Part shown: positions 1,750 to 57,918 of the stretch, in pieces
Numbering within the stretch: the first letter of the stretch is position 1
Layout of the letters: every line of letters starts with the position of its first letter
Virus record (IMG/VR): IMGVR_UViG_3300025389_001380
Span: 3,818-67,817 of that record
Strand: one strand, 5' to 3'
DNA: 64,000 bases
Source of the DNA: a virus
Taxonomy: Duplodnaviria; Caudoviricetes
The notes under the pieces: model-generated
The model's input: only the letters and a program-made list of their open reading frames with translations
What the model was told of the DNA's origin: nothing
Database searches by the model: none
Program-made: the position numbers and the translations under genes

Positions 1750-4700
1750 TTAAGCCTGTGCTTCTTGCCAGCTAAGTCGTGCTTGGATCTGCTGGCTGCT
1801 TGGGTTCAAGCTCTGGCACACAACCGTTAGCACGTCTGGACCGTCTGGATAGACCTGCTGTCCAGCTGTGTTGTTCTGTCCACCGCCCAGTATGCTGTTA
1901 CCCAGATCGCGCACAGGCGTTAGGTCAAACGGCGTGTCGTTGTAACCAGTACCACCACCAGCAGTGACGAAGAACGCGAAGATCGATTCACCACCGTTGA
2001 TCAGCGTGCCCACTGGATGGTAAGCAACCTGCGCCAAGCTTGATCCGCCTACCTGTTGGAATGTGCTAGGCACACCAGCTGGAGGCAACACGATGCCGTT
2101 CAGCACCAGGTTGATGAGGAACACGCCGTTGGTGATCACGTCCATAGCGAACGGTTGCAGCTGCATGTGGTTGATCAGTTCCTTGGTACCCAGGGTACCA
2201 CCCTGACCAGCCTGCACGCTGGGGCTGATGCGGATGCTCATCAATGCAGCCCTTTGGTTAGCGCCAACTGACAGTGGTGCCACCATGCCCGCGATGAAGA
2301 TATAGCTCTTATCGTTGTCGTACTTGCCGTCCATGATAGCGCTGGTTCCCCAGTGCGATATCTGCGGTGTGAAGAACGGCGCATGCATCTGTATGCCTAT
2401 GGGCTGCGTTGCGCTATAGGTATGCGACACGTTGGGATTGGCCATGGCATAGGTGGTGAGCGTGATGCTGCCCGTAGCAGTGGGAGCTTGGTTCAGCGTG
2501 ATGGTGTTGGGTGAACCATATGTCATCTTCTGTATGTAGGTGTTATTCAATATGCCTGTACCCGACACATACATGCCTGGTTGTATACCGTTGTTATATA
2601 GACTGGTCGACGTGGTCACGTTACAGTTACCGCTAAACGTGCTAACTGAAGCAATGCTTCCAGCTGTTTGACCACGGATGGTCACGTTAAAGCTGGTAGG
2701 CGTAGTAGTGTCGTACTGCACGTATTCTTGGTTGTTGTAGTCCTTGATCAGCAGTATGCCACCAGTTGACGGGAATGCAGCTGTGTTTGCTACGTTCAAC
2801 GTGGTCGCGTTGTTGGCAAAGGTCGCTGTGAGCTGCGTCTCTGGGACTTCGTTGTTGACTTCATAGTGGGCAGGCAAGTTACCTGAACGCATGTAGCTTA
2901 GATACTGCACGTTGTTGTGCTGCAGCTTGTGCGCATAGTATATCTGACCGTCAACAGTGCGCACGCCCCAGCGCACGAAACCTGCACCATACCAGCTGTA
3001 GTCTATGTACCACATCTGTATCTTGGTGAGGTCGATGGCATAACCACTCGGTCCTGTACCATCCAATCGGTCGATGTTGAACTGGTTCTGCGGTATCCTG
3101 TTGTCTTGTATCTTGCTGACCTGAGCCTGGCTGATGCTGGCACCGCGATAGGGAGGCGTTATGGTCATCGTGGTGTTGCTCAGTATCTGCAGCACCCTGT
3201 AGGTTTGGCCGCGTATCACTATGTAATCGCTTGGTTCCAACTGTGTAGCAAATGAAGTCGTAGCACCATCTGGGCCTGTTATGCCAGTTACTGTGCTACT
3301 GCCCTGAGTCACGCTGACATAACCGCCAATCTGCTGAGTGCTGCTGCGACGCACTGCGTACAGCACCTGACCGTCAAATTCCCAGAACAGGCCGTTTTGC
3401 TGTTCAAACAGACCAGTGCGCACCTTGCTGCCATACCATGCGTTTGGTCCAAATCCAGGTATACCAGTGCAGGTCGTGCTGGCCAGCACATTGCTGGCAT
3501 AGACGTTTACCGTGTAGGCATCTGGTGTCTGCTGTATGATATAGGTTCCTGCATAACCAGTGGGTATGCCGTTGGGGTTGGTAACTCCCAAACCAGTACT
3601 GATAGTCGCAGTGTTGCCGATATAGATGTTGGCACCTGCGCTGAGATAGTGTGCAGTCTTAGTCTTGATAGTGATTAAAGCACCGATACCTGTGGTGTTG
3701 GCAGTGATGCTGTCCACGGGGATCTGCGGTTTGAAGATCGTACCCGTGCTCATCTGGATGCCCTTACCAGACTGATAGCGGAAGTAACGTCGTGTTTGGC
3801 GTATCACGCTCACGTTGTGCGACACGGGATTGCCTGTGGTAAAGAACACGCCACCGTCAAACGCCCTGTGGCTGATCACTATGTCAGTACGCGGTACAAC
3901 GTTGGCCACGTTTGAGCCTGTGGCAGGAGTTGCATTTAACAGCACTGTCACGTTGCTGTCATTGGTGAAGCCAGTTACAGTCCAAGAACCATTGAATGTG
4001 GCAACGTTGCTGTTGCTGACCATGATGCCGTTGCCAACCTGCAAGCCATGCGGCTGAGCAAAGCTGAAAGTTGCTTGGTTACCGGAGAAGGTGATGTTGC
4101 TCACGCTGCCGTTGAGAACATATTGGCTGTTGGTATAAAGTGCGCCTTGGTAAGCTGTGGTCGCGCTGGGATTGAACACGCTGCCTGTGGTTCCAGTATA
4201 CTGGACGCGAGCATTGGCAACCAAACCATTTCCGTACTGGTTGGTGTTCTCAATTATGAAGCTGCCGTTGGCACCGGAGAAGTTGGTATCCTGGATGTAC
4301 ATGGTTTGACCAGGGACAGGCAGTGGTTGGTTCTGCCAGTACCAAATGCCGGTGGCTGCGTTGATAACGTTAGAAACCAAAGTCAAGCTGGTATCACTGT
4401 TGATAGCAGCCACCTGTCCCACTGTTTGGTAGGTGCTATTGTAGATGTAGAAGCCGGTCAACAGCTGTTGCGTGAACACTGTGTTAGTGCCAGTGATGGT
4501 GTTACCTGAACTGGTCACAGTACCAGAACCCACTGTGTAACCAACGTTTACAGCAAACAAGGTGCTGTTATTGATAGCCAACACGTCAGTGACGTTCAAT
4601 GGCGTCTGAAAGTTCACGTAGTAGCTGGGCTTGTTGTTTGTTAGACCCACGGTTTCCCACTTGGTTGGCTGTAGACCGTATTCAAAGTCAGTATCGATCA

Positions 4701-53248: not shown

Positions 53249-53841
53249 ACGACACACAGCGCCTAGAAGCCATGGACAGCTACTTTGGCCGTTATCGTAA
53301 GATGATAGGCCGGCTAAAAGCCAGCGAGCAGGAGTACGAGGATAATCGCAGAGCCTACGAACAGCGTCGCACGGAACTGCAGGAAGAACGCACTCGCATC
53401 ACTCGCGAGCTGGCCAACATGAGGCAGGTCATCACCAAGATGATAGACGATGGCATTGATCCTGTGATGGCTGGTCTGATCATGAACGAAGAGGATGCTA
53501 CGACCAGCACCATATGGCAGCAGCGTGACGAGGACGGCTTTGGCATGACCATGAACACTGATGACATCATGAAACGCATGGGCAAGATCTCAGCCTTGAC
53601 CACAGCTGACATCAGCACTCTGAGCATGGGTCAGCTGAGCTGGCCAGGAGCCACAGGTGCAACTGGTGCCATTGGAGCGTCTGGATCAATCAGCATGGGT
53701 CCCAATGGCGGCTATCAGCAAGGATATGGAGCGATTCCGCCTATATCTAACCATCCAGGAGTCACGGCAGACATGCGTGGATTTGTGGATGGCCATGGCG
53801 ACTATCATGAATATGCATGGACAGGCACAGCAGAACTATAG
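53245..53841 (+). CDS. Hypothetical coiled-coil protein (198 aa)
   Basis: Charged heptad N-terminus and Gly-rich C-terminus. Confidence 0.65.
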   Translation: MNDTQRLEAMDSYFGRYRKMIGRLKASEQEYEDNRRAYEQRRTELQEERTRITRELANMRQVITKMIDDGIDPVMAGLIMNEEDATTSTIWQQRDEDGFGMTMNTDDIMKRMGKISALTTADISTLSMGQLSWPGATGATGAIGASGSISMGPNGGYQQGYGAIPPISNHPGVTADMRGFVDGHGDYHEYAWTGTAEL

Positions 53842-53870
53842 TTGCGCATACCGCCTAAATAGATTACAAT
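53842..53870 (+). promoter_or_regulatory. Sigma70-type promoter TTGCGC-N17-TACAAT with embedded CTAAATA (53855-53861)
   Basis: Upstream of folE. Confidence 0.5.
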
Positions 53871-53910
53871 CACATACGCAACCCACTGCGTCAACATCGG
53901 GAGATAAACA

Positions 53911-54597
53911 TTGACTATCAGTGATAAGATACGCCAGCGAATCAAAGCAGCTGGTGCAAGCTTCAATGCTAACGACAACATCAGCGCATACATAGAACCA
54001 GGTGAAACTGATCAACTGATCGATGAGCTAAATGCACGCTTTGACGCAGTGCTGGACAGCTTGATCATTGATCGCGAGAACGATCCCAACAGCCACGATA
54101 CTGGTCGACGGTTGGCAAAGATGTATGTTAAAGAGCTGATGAGTGGCAGATATTTCGCTGCACCAAAGGCAACTAGCTTTCCCAATGACAGCGCAGAACG
54201 CTACGAAGGCATGTTGGTGGTTCGCAGCGAGCTCAAGAGCGTGTGCAGCCATCACCATCAGCCAGTGAGTGGCGTGGCCTACATTGGCATCATCGCAGCA
54301 CAGAAGCTGATCGGTCTCAGCAAGTACAGCAGGATAGCACAGTGGTGTGCACGTCGCGGTACGCTGCAGGAAGAGCTGTGCAACGACATTGCCAAGGAGA
54401 TCATGAGGGCCACTGACTCAGAGAACGTGGGAGTGTACATCCAAGCTTCCCATGGATGCTGCGAAAATCGGGGCCTAATGGCACATTCTAGTTTGACACA
54501 GACCACTGTGCTGCGCGGTGCGTTCTTTACAGATCAGAGCACCAAGAAAGAATTCTTTGACAACATCAAGCTGCAACAGGAATTCGCACCAAGATAA
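53911..54597 (+). CDS. folE: GTP cyclohydrolase I
   Basis: SVCSHHHQP, IGLSKYSRI, LQEEL and HGCCENRG; TTG start after GGGAG. Confidence 0.93.
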   Translation: MTISDKIRQRIKAAGASFNANDNISAYIEPGETDQLIDELNARFDAVLDSLIIDRENDPNSHDTGRRLAKMYVKELMSGRYFAAPKATSFPNDSAERYEGMLVVRSELKSVCSHHHQPVSGVAYIGIIAAQKLIGLSKYSRIAQWCARRGTLQEELCNDIAKEIMRATDSENVGVYIQASHGCCENRGLMAHSSLTQTTVLRGAFFTDQSTKKEFFDNIKLQQEFAPR

Positions 54598-54604
54598 GTA
54601 TGAC

Positions 54605-54669
54605 AAGCGGCGCTTACGGCTTCACCCCGCTTTACAAATTCTGCAGCCTATGGTACACTAACATAGGAG
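54605..54669 (+). ncRNA. Candidate structured leader (H-type pseudoknot plus SD-sequestering hairpin) upstream of queD
   Basis: P1 aagcgg/ccgctt, P2 ggct/agcc, alternative cctatg/catagg pairing over the SD. Found by manual pairing only. Confidence 0.4.
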
Positions 54670-54676
54670 CACGACC

Positions 54677-55171
54677 ATGACACCAGTAACTTACAAGTAC
54701 ACCAGCACTAAAGAATACCACGACGCATTTCCCTGCGCTTATCGCCAGTGGCGAGCAGATAGCCACTGCAACATGATACACGGTTACAGCTTCTCAATGA
54801 AGTTCTACTTCGGCACTGACAACCTGGATGTGCGCAACTGGGCAGCAGACTACGGCGGTCTCAAGGAGCTCAAGAAGATCCTAGAAGACCAGTTTGATCA
54901 CACGCTGTTGGTGGCTGAAGATGATCCTGAGATGGATACGTTCAAGCTGTTGCAATCAAAGAAACTGGCCAAGCTGACTATCCTGCCCAAGTTAGGCTGC
55001 GAAGGTCTGGCTGACATGCTGTACAAGTACGTGAACGGCGTGTACATCCCAGATCTCTGGGGACCAGGAGAAGCAGCACGCTTATGGTGCTATCGCGTGG
55101 AAGTGCGCGAGACACAGGCCAACATGGCTTTCCGCGAAGGTCACAGGGAGTGGAACGAGGAACTGATATGA
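54677..55171 (+). CDS. queD: 6-carboxy-5,6,7,8-tetrahydropterin synthase (QueD/PTPS)
   Basis: HCNMIHGYS (CxxxHG, third His replaced by Tyr), DYGGLK...FDHTLL and EGLA...VEVRET. Confidence 0.85.
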   Translation: MTPVTYKYTSTKEYHDAFPCAYRQWRADSHCNMIHGYSFSMKFYFGTDNLDVRNWAADYGGLKELKKILEDQFDHTLLVAEDDPEMDTFKLLQSKKLAKLTILPKLGCEGLADMLYKYVNGVYIPDLWGPGEAARLWCYRVEVRETQANMAFREGHREWNEELI

Positions 55172-55518
55172 CTCATGCTGAAACAGATTTTCAAAACATG
55201 ATCAATGTGTTCGATGCGGCACTGGGCAGTGACAATCCGCAGGTCAAGCAGGCACTGAACAGCCTAGTGATGATGGTGGCACTGACCAACGACCCAGAAG
55301 GCAAGAACACTGGACCGTTCCGTCACATGTGGCTAAGTTTTGAAGACAGCCGCAAAGAGGCACAGGAACTGAAACGCATGGTTGACAAGCTAGTGCGAGA
55401 AGTAGACATGCTCAAGACCTATCCTGCAGATGGTAGACACAGTTGGAAACCTTGGGGTAATGATATAAAAGGTACAAGCTTCAACCAAGTCTTTATAGAC
55501 GAGGCTAGCAAAAGGTGA
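55168..55518 (+). CDS. Hypothetical protein (116 aa)
   Basis: ATGA overlap with queD (track starts at 55084). Confidence 0.65.
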   Translation: MTHAETDFQNMINVFDAALGSDNPQVKQALNSLVMMVALTNDPEGKNTGPFRHMWLSFEDSRKEAQELKRMVDKLVREVDMLKTYPADGRHSWKPWGNDIKGTSFNQVFIDEASKR

Positions 55519-55522
55519 CAAA

Positions 55523-55822
55523 ATGAAATGGTTTGACAAGTGGTTCCAACGGCAAGCCAAGAAAGCCTGGGACAATTACGACGACAATCCAAGGCTGATC
55601 AAGACTGTGGCAGGCAGCGCAGCAGGCAATGGTCATGAGCTAAGCAGCCAAGGAGCAGCTACTCTACGCATTCACGCTGCGCATGGTGGCAAGGTCATAG
55701 AGATCAGCAACTGGGATGAGCGCCGCGGTGAACACCAACGCGATCTCTACATCGTGCGCGACGATGCTGAGCTTGGACCAGAGCTTACAAGCATCATCAT
55801 GCAGCACAGCCTGAGGTATTAA
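55523..55822 (+). CDS. Conserved phage hypothetical protein (99 aa)
   Basis: MKWFDKWF...IHAAHGGKVIE...DLYIV. Confidence 0.7.
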   Translation: MKWFDKWFQRQAKKAWDNYDDNPRLIKTVAGSAAGNGHELSSQGAATLRIHAAHGGKVIEISNWDERRGEHQRDLYIVRDDAELGPELTSIIMQHSLRY

Positions 55823-55823
55823 C

Positions 55824-56372
55824 ATGGCAGCGATAGGAACAGTTTCTCCACTCACAAACATCACCACAGGAAGCTACACTACCGCTACCATCGGCGGAGG
55901 TGGCGGTGGTGGGGTTGGCGCAATCACATTAACATCAACGGGTGCTGGTTATACCAGCACCACTACACCATACATAACGGTGTCAGGCGGGGGAACGGGC
56001 TACGCCAATCAAGTGCTCACTACCAACACAGGTGGTGCGACTAGTTGGACAGGTATCGGCGGTAAAGAAGTCATGCGCATCAGCGCAGATGGTGATATCT
56101 TCCAAGGTGGCAGTAGTAATGCCGATGACGGCGTGTTTGCACGCCTTGAACGCTTGGAACGCCTCATGGGTATCATGCGCCGAGACCGCAGCCTAGAAAG
56201 CGATTACGAACCCATGCGCCAGCTTGGCGATGCCTACGATGACGCAGTTGATGCTGCTATCTCAGCCATCATGGAAGTCACGTTGGGCAAGCTGAGGCAC
56301 ATGGAACAAGAATACGAGAACATGCGTGAGCAGGCCAAGGTCTGGCGTGCGCTGAGCAAGGATGACGACTGA
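55824..56372 (+). CDS. Hypothetical protein (182 aa), T/G-rich N-terminus and helical C-terminus
   Basis: Tightly packed ORF in the operon. Confidence 0.65.
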   Translation: MAAIGTVSPLTNITTGSYTTATIGGGGGGGVGAITLTSTGAGYTSTTTPYITVSGGGTGYANQVLTTNTGGATSWTGIGGKEVMRISADGDIFQGGSSNADDGVFARLERLERLMGIMRRDRSLESDYEPMRQLGDAYDDAVDAAISAIMEVTLGKLRHMEQEYENMREQAKVWRALSKDDD

Positions 56373-56605
56373 TGACGAAACCAGTGAGTGCCGATGGCAT
56401 GTCAGGTGTGTTGTTGCCCATAGGCGGATCTATGGTATTCAGAGTGTACCAACCAGACGGCACCTTCACTGACTATGACATCTATCACAGTGATCTCATG
56501 GTCACTATCAACGATGAAGACGCATATTTTTATACCAGCAAGACTGGCGAACCATATTTGGATCATTCGCCAGCTACACTAGGCATCGGAGTAAATGATG
56601 ACTGA
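56372..56605 (+). CDS. Hypothetical protein (77 aa)
   Basis: TGATG coupling. Confidence 0.65.
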   Translation: MTKPVSADGMSGVLLPIGGSMVFRVYQPDGTFTDYDIYHSDLMVTINDEDAYFYTSKTGEPYLDHSPATLGIGVNDD

Positions 56606-56792: not shown

Positions 56793-57010
56793 TGCCATTG
56801 ATATACGAAAGCCCAGACAAAGGCGTCACAGTCTATGGCAGAGAGCTAGGACACATGGATCGCCATCTGGTAAAGGGCAACCCAACAGATCCCTACGAGC
56901 ATCTCTATCTGTGGCATGACATCGTCGCTGCCAGTGAAACCAATCCAGCCTTGCGCGAAGTGCTGGATCAAGCTATAATGATCTATAAGCTGAGCAAGGA
57001 GCAACCATGA
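56792..57010 (+). CDS. Conserved phage hypothetical protein (72 aa)
   Basis: IYESPDKGVTVY-R motif; coupled to its neighbours. Confidence 0.7.
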   Translation: MPLIYESPDKGVTVYGRELGHMDRHLVKGNPTDPYEHLYLWHDIVAASETNPALREVLDQAIMIYKLSKEQP

Positions 57011-57918
57011 GCACTGCCAAGAAGTACCGTTACAGCGAGATATTTGGTGGCAACGCAGGCCCCACTCCAACCATACAGGGCGAAGGTCGCTATGGCGGAC
57101 ATCCAACAGTATGGATCCGTTTCTGGGGTTGCAATCTCAACTGCAATGGCTTCGGACAAGCCAATCCCAGAGATCCCAGCACCTACAAGCTGGACTACTT
57201 GGACTATGATCCCAAGGCCAACAACATCAGCAAGATGGATGACTTACCTGTGTGGACAACTGGCTGTGACAGCAGCTACAGCTGGAGCACTCGCTATGGG
57301 CATCTAGCGCATCAGAGCACAGCAGAAGAGATCTGCGCTGATTTCCGCAGCAGGTTGCAGGGCAGCAGCTTCATACATCCTCGCAGCGGACAAGACGTGC
57401 ATTTGGCATTCACTGGCGGTGAACCCATGATGAGCCAGACTGGCATCGTGGACATCATGCAGACTCTGCGCATGCAGAACGACAGTCCTCGACACATCAC
57501 CATCGAGACCAACGGCACCCAAGCACCTCGCAAGGCATTCACAGATTTCTTCACCAACAAAGGCATGTACAACGGCGAACTGTTCTGGAGTTGCAGCCCC
57601 AAGCTGGGTACCAGTGGTGAAAAGTGGGACGATGCTATCATGCCAGCCATCGTGCGAGAATATCGCTTGATCAGCAACGTTGGTCAGCTCAAGTTCGTGC
57701 TTGACAAGAATCCCTTGACCTGGGACGAGCTTGAACGTGCAGTTGATGCGTTCCGCGCTGTAGATGTGAACTGGCCAGTGTGGATCATGCCAGTTGGTGC
57801 CACCAGAGAAGAACAAGAAGACGTGCAGATGTGGGTCACAGAAGAAGCGCTCAAGCGCGGCTACAATGTAGCAGCTCGCATACACTGCTGGATCTTCAGC
57901 AACGTGATAGGACGATAA
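57007..57918 (+). CDS. queE: 7-carboxy-7-deazaguanine synthase (radical SAM)
   Basis: YSEIF...IQGEG...RFWGCNLNC...GCDS (long insert before the third Cys), TGGEP, ETNGT, SPKL and RIH. Confidence 0.9.
   Translation: MSTAKKYRYSEIFGGNAGPTPTIQGEGRYGGHPTVWIRFWGCNLNCNGFGQANPRDPSTYKLDYLDYDPKANNISKMDDLPVWTTGCDSSYSWSTRYGHLAHQSTAEEICADFRSRLQGSSFIHPRSGQDVHLAFTGGEPMMSQTGIVDIMQTLRMQNDSPRHITIETNGTQAPRKAFTDFFTNKGMYNGELFWSCSPKLGTSGEKWDDAIMPAIVREYRLISNVGQLKFVLDKNPLTWDELERAVDAFRAVDVNWPVWIMPVGATREEQEDVQMWVTEEALKRGYNVAARIHCWIFSNVIGR

Follow-up and report, generated by a model that had tools for sequence, protein, structure and literature searches.

We found that the 79-nt gap between the folE and queD genes of a phage genome fragment carries, at positions 54606-54648, a conserved H-type pseudoknot composed of a 5-bp P1, a variable L1, a 7-bp P2, a 2-nt L2 and a 10-nt L3. 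The 3′ strand of P2 is shared with an alternative fold, which buries the Shine-Dalgarno (SD) sequence of queD or, in other relatives, the start codon instead. The comparison of relatives gives good support to both the structure and its switch wiring, which we regard as real. The queD leader is probably a metabolite-sensing translational ON riboswitch of an uncatalogued class, and we treat it below as a candidate for one.

The window, i.e., the whole 64,000-nt stretch of DNA that was analyzed, lies within a 67.8-kb IMG/VR virus record with a completeness estimate of 13%. The genes of the 7-deazaguanine pathway recognized in it are:

53911..54597, + strand: folE, GTP cyclohydrolase I (PF01227, E = 7.9e-38), with a TTG start
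54677..55171, + strand: queD coding sequence, PTPS family (PF01242, E = 1.6e-15), with its ATG at 54677
57007-57918: QueE-like radical-SAM gene

The folE stop codon lies 8 nt 5′ of P1. Neither QueC (PF06508) nor TGT/DpdA (PF01702) was found in the 67.8-kb fragment, estimated at 13% of the genome, and a supply of DNA modification by the pathway, as suggested in the first-pass annotation, is therefore only a supposition here. Several ORFs in the queD-queE interval (55084-56605) are without a Pfam or PHROGs match.

The queD-leader pseudoknot and its relatives

The aptamer of the window consists of the following elements:

54606..54610, + strand: 5′ arm of P1, AGCGG, pairing with 54627-31
54611..54617, + strand: L1, CGCUUAC, delimited by structural parse and covariance model (CM) alignments; 3-10 nt among relatives
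54618..54624, + strand: 5′ strand of P2, GGCU-U-CA (P2b GGCU, mismatch U54622, P2a CA), pairing with 54642-48
54625..54626, + strand: L2, CC; its second base, C54626, adjoins the P1 3′ arm and is invariant
54627..54631, + strand: 3′ arm of P1, CCGCU; its top two G-C pairs are invariant
54632..54641, + strand: L3, the A-rich linker UUACAAAUUC; consensus NNANANAYUC
54642..54648, + strand: 3′ strand of P2, UG-C-AGCC, covarying with 54618-24 and doubling as the 5′ part of the anti-RBS fold

The positions given in the first-pass annotation for P1, its loop, P2, the anti-SD stem, the SD and the ATG all agree with the sequence. P1 had been read there as six pairs (aagcgg 54605-10 with ccgctt 54627-32) around a 16-nt loop with a UUCACC end. 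Five of these pairs (54606-10 with 54627-31) stand; the sixth, A54605-U54632, does not belong to the conserved helix and is possible in 12 of 136 relatives. P2 was rightly placed at ggct 54618-21 and agcc 54645-48, and its proposed extension to ggcttca 54618-24 and tgcagcc 54642-48, paired at six of seven positions, also covaries.

The same plan holds across 151 distinct aptamers. P1 is a 5-bp helix of the form AGNGG/CCNCU, while P2 spans 7-10 bp and begins with a highly variable P2b, mostly of 3-7 bp, followed by a U·C mismatch and by P2a (CA/UG). The internal mismatch is kept in 118 of the 151, the remainder having small asymmetric loops. L2 is YC or YYC (AC in one aptamer), and its final C is present in 151/151. 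L3 measures 10 nt in nearly all aptamers, its three A positions and the final UC being invariant or nearly so, and the first base of L1 varies between C, U and A.

With the QueD protein as query against viral contigs, more than 590 relatives were recovered, and 80 loci were kept. A CM with P1 as its sole structure detects a single copy in the 64-kb window (54606-54651, 58-63 bits) and one copy upstream of queD in 79 of the 80 phage loci, all of them fetched by QueD protein only; the one negative locus retains just 49 nt of sequence upstream of queD. A degenerate pattern scan of viral contigs contributed more than 120 extra stretches and brought the total parsed to the 151 distinct aptamers. 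The gene 3′ of the motif codes for a QueD/PTPS homolog in 146 of 148 distinct leaders, with identity to the protein of the window down to 29%. In the exceptions, contigs L176 and L183, the gene behind the aptamer codes for a cupin (PF07883) or a methyltransferase (PF08003-like).

The motif occurs almost only in uncultured phage contigs. A strict pattern run against one genome per prokaryote species gave six matches, two of which are genuine and lie 5′ of queD, on metagenome-assembled (MAG) contigs named Haliscomenobacter and Chitinophagales. Since every leader carries a strong SD and sigma-70-type hexamers, we do not accept these names as evidence of the host. The other four matches, located inside coding sequence and devoid of P2 complementarity, were rejected. 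Cultured phages with a related queD are without the leader, their queD overlapping the upstream gene, and blastn of the leader against GenBank phages returned chance matches only. An upstream ORF on the same strand ends within 200 nt of P1 in 119/136 loci (median gap 11 nt), and the upstream gene is not the same across loci. Judging by this arrangement, the element is usually an intercistronic one within a putative polycistronic mRNA.

Taken alone, the copy in the window folds no better than shuffled sequence (MFE -17.5 kcal/mol, z = -0.71; 47 of 200 shuffles equally good), so that the significance of the structure comes only from comparison with relatives. P1 is paired at 99% and exists in five compensated types (GCGG/CCGC in 90, GAGG/CCUC in 25, GUGG/CCAC in 18, CCGG/CCGG in 7 and UCGG/CCGA in 4). 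P2b is represented by about 57 tallied complementary helix variants, with 3-6 pair types in each of its columns, and two lineages, L003 and L032, have CG/CG in P2a in place of CA/UG. When the loop is combined with its cognate tail, all four P2b pairs form in 61% of aptamers, vs. 17% for non-cognate combinations.

MAFFT alignments (A1 and A2) and a CM built on A2 (R1), all of which were out of structural register from the length variation of L1 and L2, were replaced by a gapless seed (A4), a new CM (R2) and two alignments, A5 and A6. In A6, which holds protein-retrieved loci unselected for RNA, 94.4% of the P1 and P2 cells are paired vs. 79.1% after shuffling (reached in 0/500 shuffles), and the covariation score is 0.389 vs. 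0.126 (0/500). Slid registers pair only 29-49% of cells in the same alignment, and both sides change in 7 of the 12 pairs. The larger A5 is paired at 97% and scores 0.483 vs. 0.136 for covariation; it was chosen for the 1x1 mismatch register, a selection of which A6 is free. The covariation check proposed with the first reading of the sequence was positive for P1, for P2 and for the anti-SD stem described below.

Expression platforms and ON wiring

Downstream of the aptamer, the window contains the two elements of the platform:

54647..54667, + strand: SD-sequestering hairpin, CCUAUG 54647-52 with CAUAGG 54662-67, 9-nt loop
54665..54669, + strand: SD of queD, AGGAG, 7 nt 5′ of the ATG at 54677

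The hairpin has a predicted energy of -6.0 kcal/mol alone and of -10.3 kcal/mol with an outer helix (54640-44 / 54669-74) in which 54640-44 pairs with 54669-71 and 54673-74. The anti-SD stem had been described as sharing 54647-48 with P2, which is correct, yet the overlap is larger than noted there, as the outer helix also takes the UGC of the P2 3′ strand. The partners of this strand in the alternative fold are consequently two, 54669-71 for 54642-44 and 54666-67 for 54647-48. Across the 71 leaders of the window's platform class (class 1), the anti-SD stem itself covaries, with CCUAUA/UAUAGG found twice and CCUGUG/CAUAGG once. Nearest-neighbor energies in the window, which leave out tertiary contacts and pseudoknot loop costs, are -4.4 (P1), -5.1 (P2 duplex) and -10.3 kcal/mol (anti-RBS fold). 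The latter being the more stable, the default state should be OFF, and opening of the RBS would then need an extra stabilization of the pseudoknot.

We folded each of 148 leaders without the 5′ half of the aptamer and compared the results with shuffled sequences. In the MFE structure of 98.6% of these leaders vs. 50% for shuffled ones, the RBS region is paired with four or more nucleotides of the P2 3′ strand, the mean number of P2 3′-strand nucleotides so paired being 7.3 vs. 3.5. The partner of the strand covers the SD and/or the AUG in 145 of the 148, and at least half of the SD is base-paired in 89%. Unrelated types of platform were distinguished:

Type 1 (that of the window): the SD is buried by CCUAUG...CAUAGG, whose CC is shared with P2; an outer UGC/GCA helix often forms beside the start codon
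Type 2: GAUGGC at the start codon is paired with GUCAUC, in which the P2 3′ strand ends
Type 3: a UGUCUU/GAGACA helix forms at the SD

Compensated variants of the platforms include UGUCAUC/GAUGGCA, UGUCAUC/GGUGACA (with a GUG start), UGUCAUUG/CAAUGGCA and AAGUCAUC/GAUGACUU. The ON-switch logic put forward in the first-pass annotation is borne out in that at least three unrelated platforms all employ the P2 3′ strand as the anti-RBS strand. As far as can be read from the sequences, the ON wiring is preserved though the platforms are non-homologous.

Known pseudoknot switches and rival explanations

The earlier suspicion that the leader does not match the consensus of known classes agrees with our searches, in which no Rfam family matches it. 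With Rfam cmscan at E <= 10, no PreQ1 was recovered from positions 53500-55500 or 54595-54685 (91 nt) of the window, nor from positions 2905-3010 (106 nt) of contig L070, which carries another copy of the motif. Matches to a snoRNA, the S15 leader, emrB and let-7 were dismissed as chance, all lying far under the gathering scores. Literature searches found no description of the queD-leader motif in the publications covered, and a 2024 review of the preQ1 family mentions neither phages nor queD.

The motif is nevertheless reminiscent of the preQ1-I riboswitches (RF00522), whose types I-III are exemplified by T. tengcongensis, B. subtilis queC and E. coli yhhQ (PMC10622847, PMC11625349). The defining P1 of preQ1-I has 5-6 bp with an invariant G-C pair at the top, and the queD leader shares with it the H-type pseudoknot, a P1 of 5 bp that is topped by an invariant G-C pair, and an invariant C directly 5′ of the P1 3′ arm (C54626 in the window), which is the position of the preQ1 specificity cytidine (PMC10622847). 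Both also have an A-rich L3 able to lie in the minor groove of P1, and both are connected with translational action on 7-deazaguanine-pathway genes, here as a candidate switch. Yet, the queD leader does not match the RF00522 covariance model, and the P2 of preQ1-I has 3-4 bp, includes part of the SD and works as an OFF device, whereas that of the queD leader has 7-10 bp with a conserved U·C mismatch and excludes the SD. The latter lies about 17 nt 3′ of P2. P2 formation frees the RBS (ON), while in preQ1-I it buries it (OFF). In preQ1-I, a run of adenines in L3 adjoins P2 and a conserved U starts L1, and both read the edge of the ligand; in the queD leader, YUC intervenes between P2 and the alternating adenines of L3, L1 starts with a variable base, and its length ranges over 3-10 nt. 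We therefore do not file the queD leader as a member of preQ1-I; it is a small pseudoknot switch of that kind, absent from Rfam.

The same general H-type architecture is found in guanidine-III (mini-ykkC), SAM-II and NAD+-II. In guanidine-III, the pseudoknot stabilized by its ligand likewise activates translation. These three classes differ from the queD leader in their conserved nucleotides and gene context, and none gave an Rfam match. In turn, the THF-II (folE motif) RNA regulates in cis and is connected with GTP cyclohydrolase and pterin metabolism, and its ligand bears a 2-amino-4-oxo-pyrimidine face. Unlike the queD leader, THF-II is a hairpin with internal loops that precedes bacterial folE and acts as an OFF switch, and it was not matched here either.

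The structural likenesses listed above (PMC10622847), together with a gene context that is that of the preQ0 pathway, favor a divergent but true preQ1-I member that senses preQ1 or preQ0 and has been rewired from OFF to ON. We consider this quite unlikely, given the lack of a PreQ1 match at E <= 10 on the 91- and 106-nt stretches, the long P2 devoid of the SD, the reversed polarity, the L3 with no terminal adenine run beside P2, the L1 with no conserved first U, and the fact that activation of queD by an end product has no obvious logic. It is somewhat easier to conceive, though still on the improbable side, that the leader exerts structured translational control with no small molecule involved, being toggled by a phage or host protein, by temperature or by a terminating ribosome (coupling). 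The structures and their competition are shown while the ligand remains a candidate, and in 72% of loci the upstream ORF comes to its stop within 20 nt of P1 (8 nt in the window), where a terminating ribosome would melt P1. On the other hand, the spacing from the upstream stop to P1 varies between -1 and over 40 nt, and no upstream ORF lies within 200 nt in 17 of 136 loci. The conservation of unpaired positions (the L2 C, the alternating L3 adenines and the U·C mismatch) is moreover typical of a binding pocket or of tertiary contacts, and the architecture parallels a known ligand-binding fold (PMC10622847).

Two further explanations do without an RNA switch altogether. One concerns a promoter nested in the leader, raised as a caveat in the first-pass annotation:

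54631..54659, + strand: sigma-70-like promoter, TTTACA-N17-TACACT with TG before the -10, overlapping the aptamer

The site is indeed present, and it is nearer to the consensus in relatives with the same hairpin than in the window. The CCUAUG-hairpin relatives have TTTACA/TATACA-N17-TAWAAT with TG and reach a promoter score of at least 9/12 in 64 of the 71 class-1 leaders; the conservation of TAWAAT in the loop of their anti-SD hairpin suggests that the promoter is real in that class. That the conservation of the leader as a whole reflects such a DNA-level signal, a sigma-70-type queD promoter rather than an RNA structure, is nonetheless very improbable. Compensatory changes in P1 and P2 are not predicted by a promoter, and a start about 7 nt past the -10 would land on the SD. 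In the other platform classes, promoter scores are mostly 7 or lower and the aptamer is nonetheless kept; about half of the aptamers (80/151) possess no -10 element, yet retain P1, L2, L3 and P2. A nested promoter can be compatible with the RNA switch and is no substitute for it; if active, it would give rise to short transcripts that start on the SD, lack the aptamer and escape the switch. The other explanation holds that the knot behind the folE stop is a recoding signal that promotes readthrough or frameshifting. The 8-nt spacing from the TAA to the pseudoknot in the window resembles that of viral readthrough signals. Even so, we give this explanation hardly any credit, as the upstream-stop spacing varies widely, the upstream gene is not constant from locus to locus, queD starts occur evenly in the three frames relative to the upstream stop (46/32/38), and queD has its own SD and start codon. 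A chance origin of the motif was rejected.

The folE leader and the candidate ligand

A smaller pseudoknot was detected upstream of folE, behind a promoter-like site:

53842..53870, + strand: promoter-like site of folE, TTGCGC-N17-TACAAT, whose spacer holds a conserved CCTAAATA box
53876..53903, + strand: folE-leader mini H-type pseudoknot, ACGCA/UGCGU, loop ACCCAC, L3 CAACAUC, SD GGGAG

The arms of its P1 are ACGCA (53876-80) and UGCGU (53887-91), and the first three G of the SD (GGGAG, 53899-903) pair with the CCC of the loop. As the SD thus forms part of P2, a stabilized knot would switch folE OFF. We collected 23 distinct variants among relatives, with five types of P1 (GCA/UGC, GUC/GAC, GAC/GUC, CCA/UGG and GAG/CUC) and with covariation between loop and SD, AUCC occurring with the SD GGAG and ACCC with GGGAG. 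The folE leader had no match in Rfam. It resembles the queD aptamer in its 4-5-bp P1, in the 2-nt L2 whose last base, next to the P1 3′ arm, is C, and in the A-rich L3 with UC at its end, and both share operon and phage group. It differs from it in the 6-nt loop, the 3-bp P2 that involves the SD itself, the OFF wiring and its location, as it begins about at the transcription start predicted for TTGCGC-N17-TACAAT.

The CCTAAATA box (53854-53861) is conserved 5′ of folE in many relatives as YCTAAATA-N4-6-TAYAAT. The combination of box and -10 was found once in the 64-kb window vs. 0 expected; occurring only there, it is no general phage promoter motif. The box might serve as an operator or as a special element of the promoter. 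Another conserved leader was observed about 90 nt upstream of a second type of FolE, 33-35% identical to that of the window (L003, L029, L033, L045, L055, L063 and others). It comprises a hairpin, for instance GUGCUAC-ACAAC-GGUAGCAC, with AUCCGCGUAAGGAAGGAU after it, where AUCC could form a helix with GGAU across the SD. By its sequence, this leader resembles one more regulatory RNA, placed upstream of a different family of folE.

The reading of the queD leader as a riboswitch builds on features general to riboswitches: a covarying aptamer, conserved unpaired positions, a coherent set of genes in cis (QueD/PTPS in 146/148) and an alternative pairing mutually exclusive with the aptamer (145/148 leaders, at least three platform types). 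In the ligand-free state, the anti-RBS fold, being the more stable, would form and queD would be poorly translated. A small molecule would bind at the P1/P2 junction, where it would be read by the invariant C, and the bound ligand would lock P2, retain the anti-RBS strand and expose the ribosome-binding site. The invariance of the L2 C points to a ligand whose Watson-Crick face is like that of guanine, a property that pterins and 7-deazaguanines have alike, and the ligand would most likely be a heterocycle of this kind from the GTP-to-preQ0 route. Control of folE (OFF) and queD (ON) by the same molecule fits 7,8-dihydroneopterin triphosphate, the product of FolE and substrate of QueD, or a close intermediate, which may be considered the best-fitting candidates; the main alternative would be a 7-deazaguanine. 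An end product such as preQ0 would account for the folE switch, but not for activation of queD. ON control of a biosynthetic gene is unusual and counts against the switch reading; the known preQ1 classes described in PMC10622847 and PMC11625349 repress expression.

It is possible, though we hold it only tentatively and with the odds against it, that the queD (ON) and folE (OFF) knots represent two versions of one new class that senses 7,8-dihydroneopterin triphosphate or a pterin/CPH4 relative. If this is true, uncultured phages would control the first steps of 7-deazaguanine synthesis by a homeostat made of RNA alone, and there would be a riboswitch for a type of ligand for which none has been described. 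With an aptamer of 43 nt and few candidate ligands, the proposal is readily testable, and the queD leader together with the OFF-wired folE leader would make a compact natural ON/OFF pair, possibly of use as a tool. Confirmation of the ligand would establish a phage-borne riboswitch class absent from Rfam. It would show the smallest known aptamer fold, the H-type pseudoknot of the preQ1-I type, rebuilt with a long P2 and reversed polarity, and it would show that phages regulate the genes for modified-guanine precursors, beyond merely carrying them.
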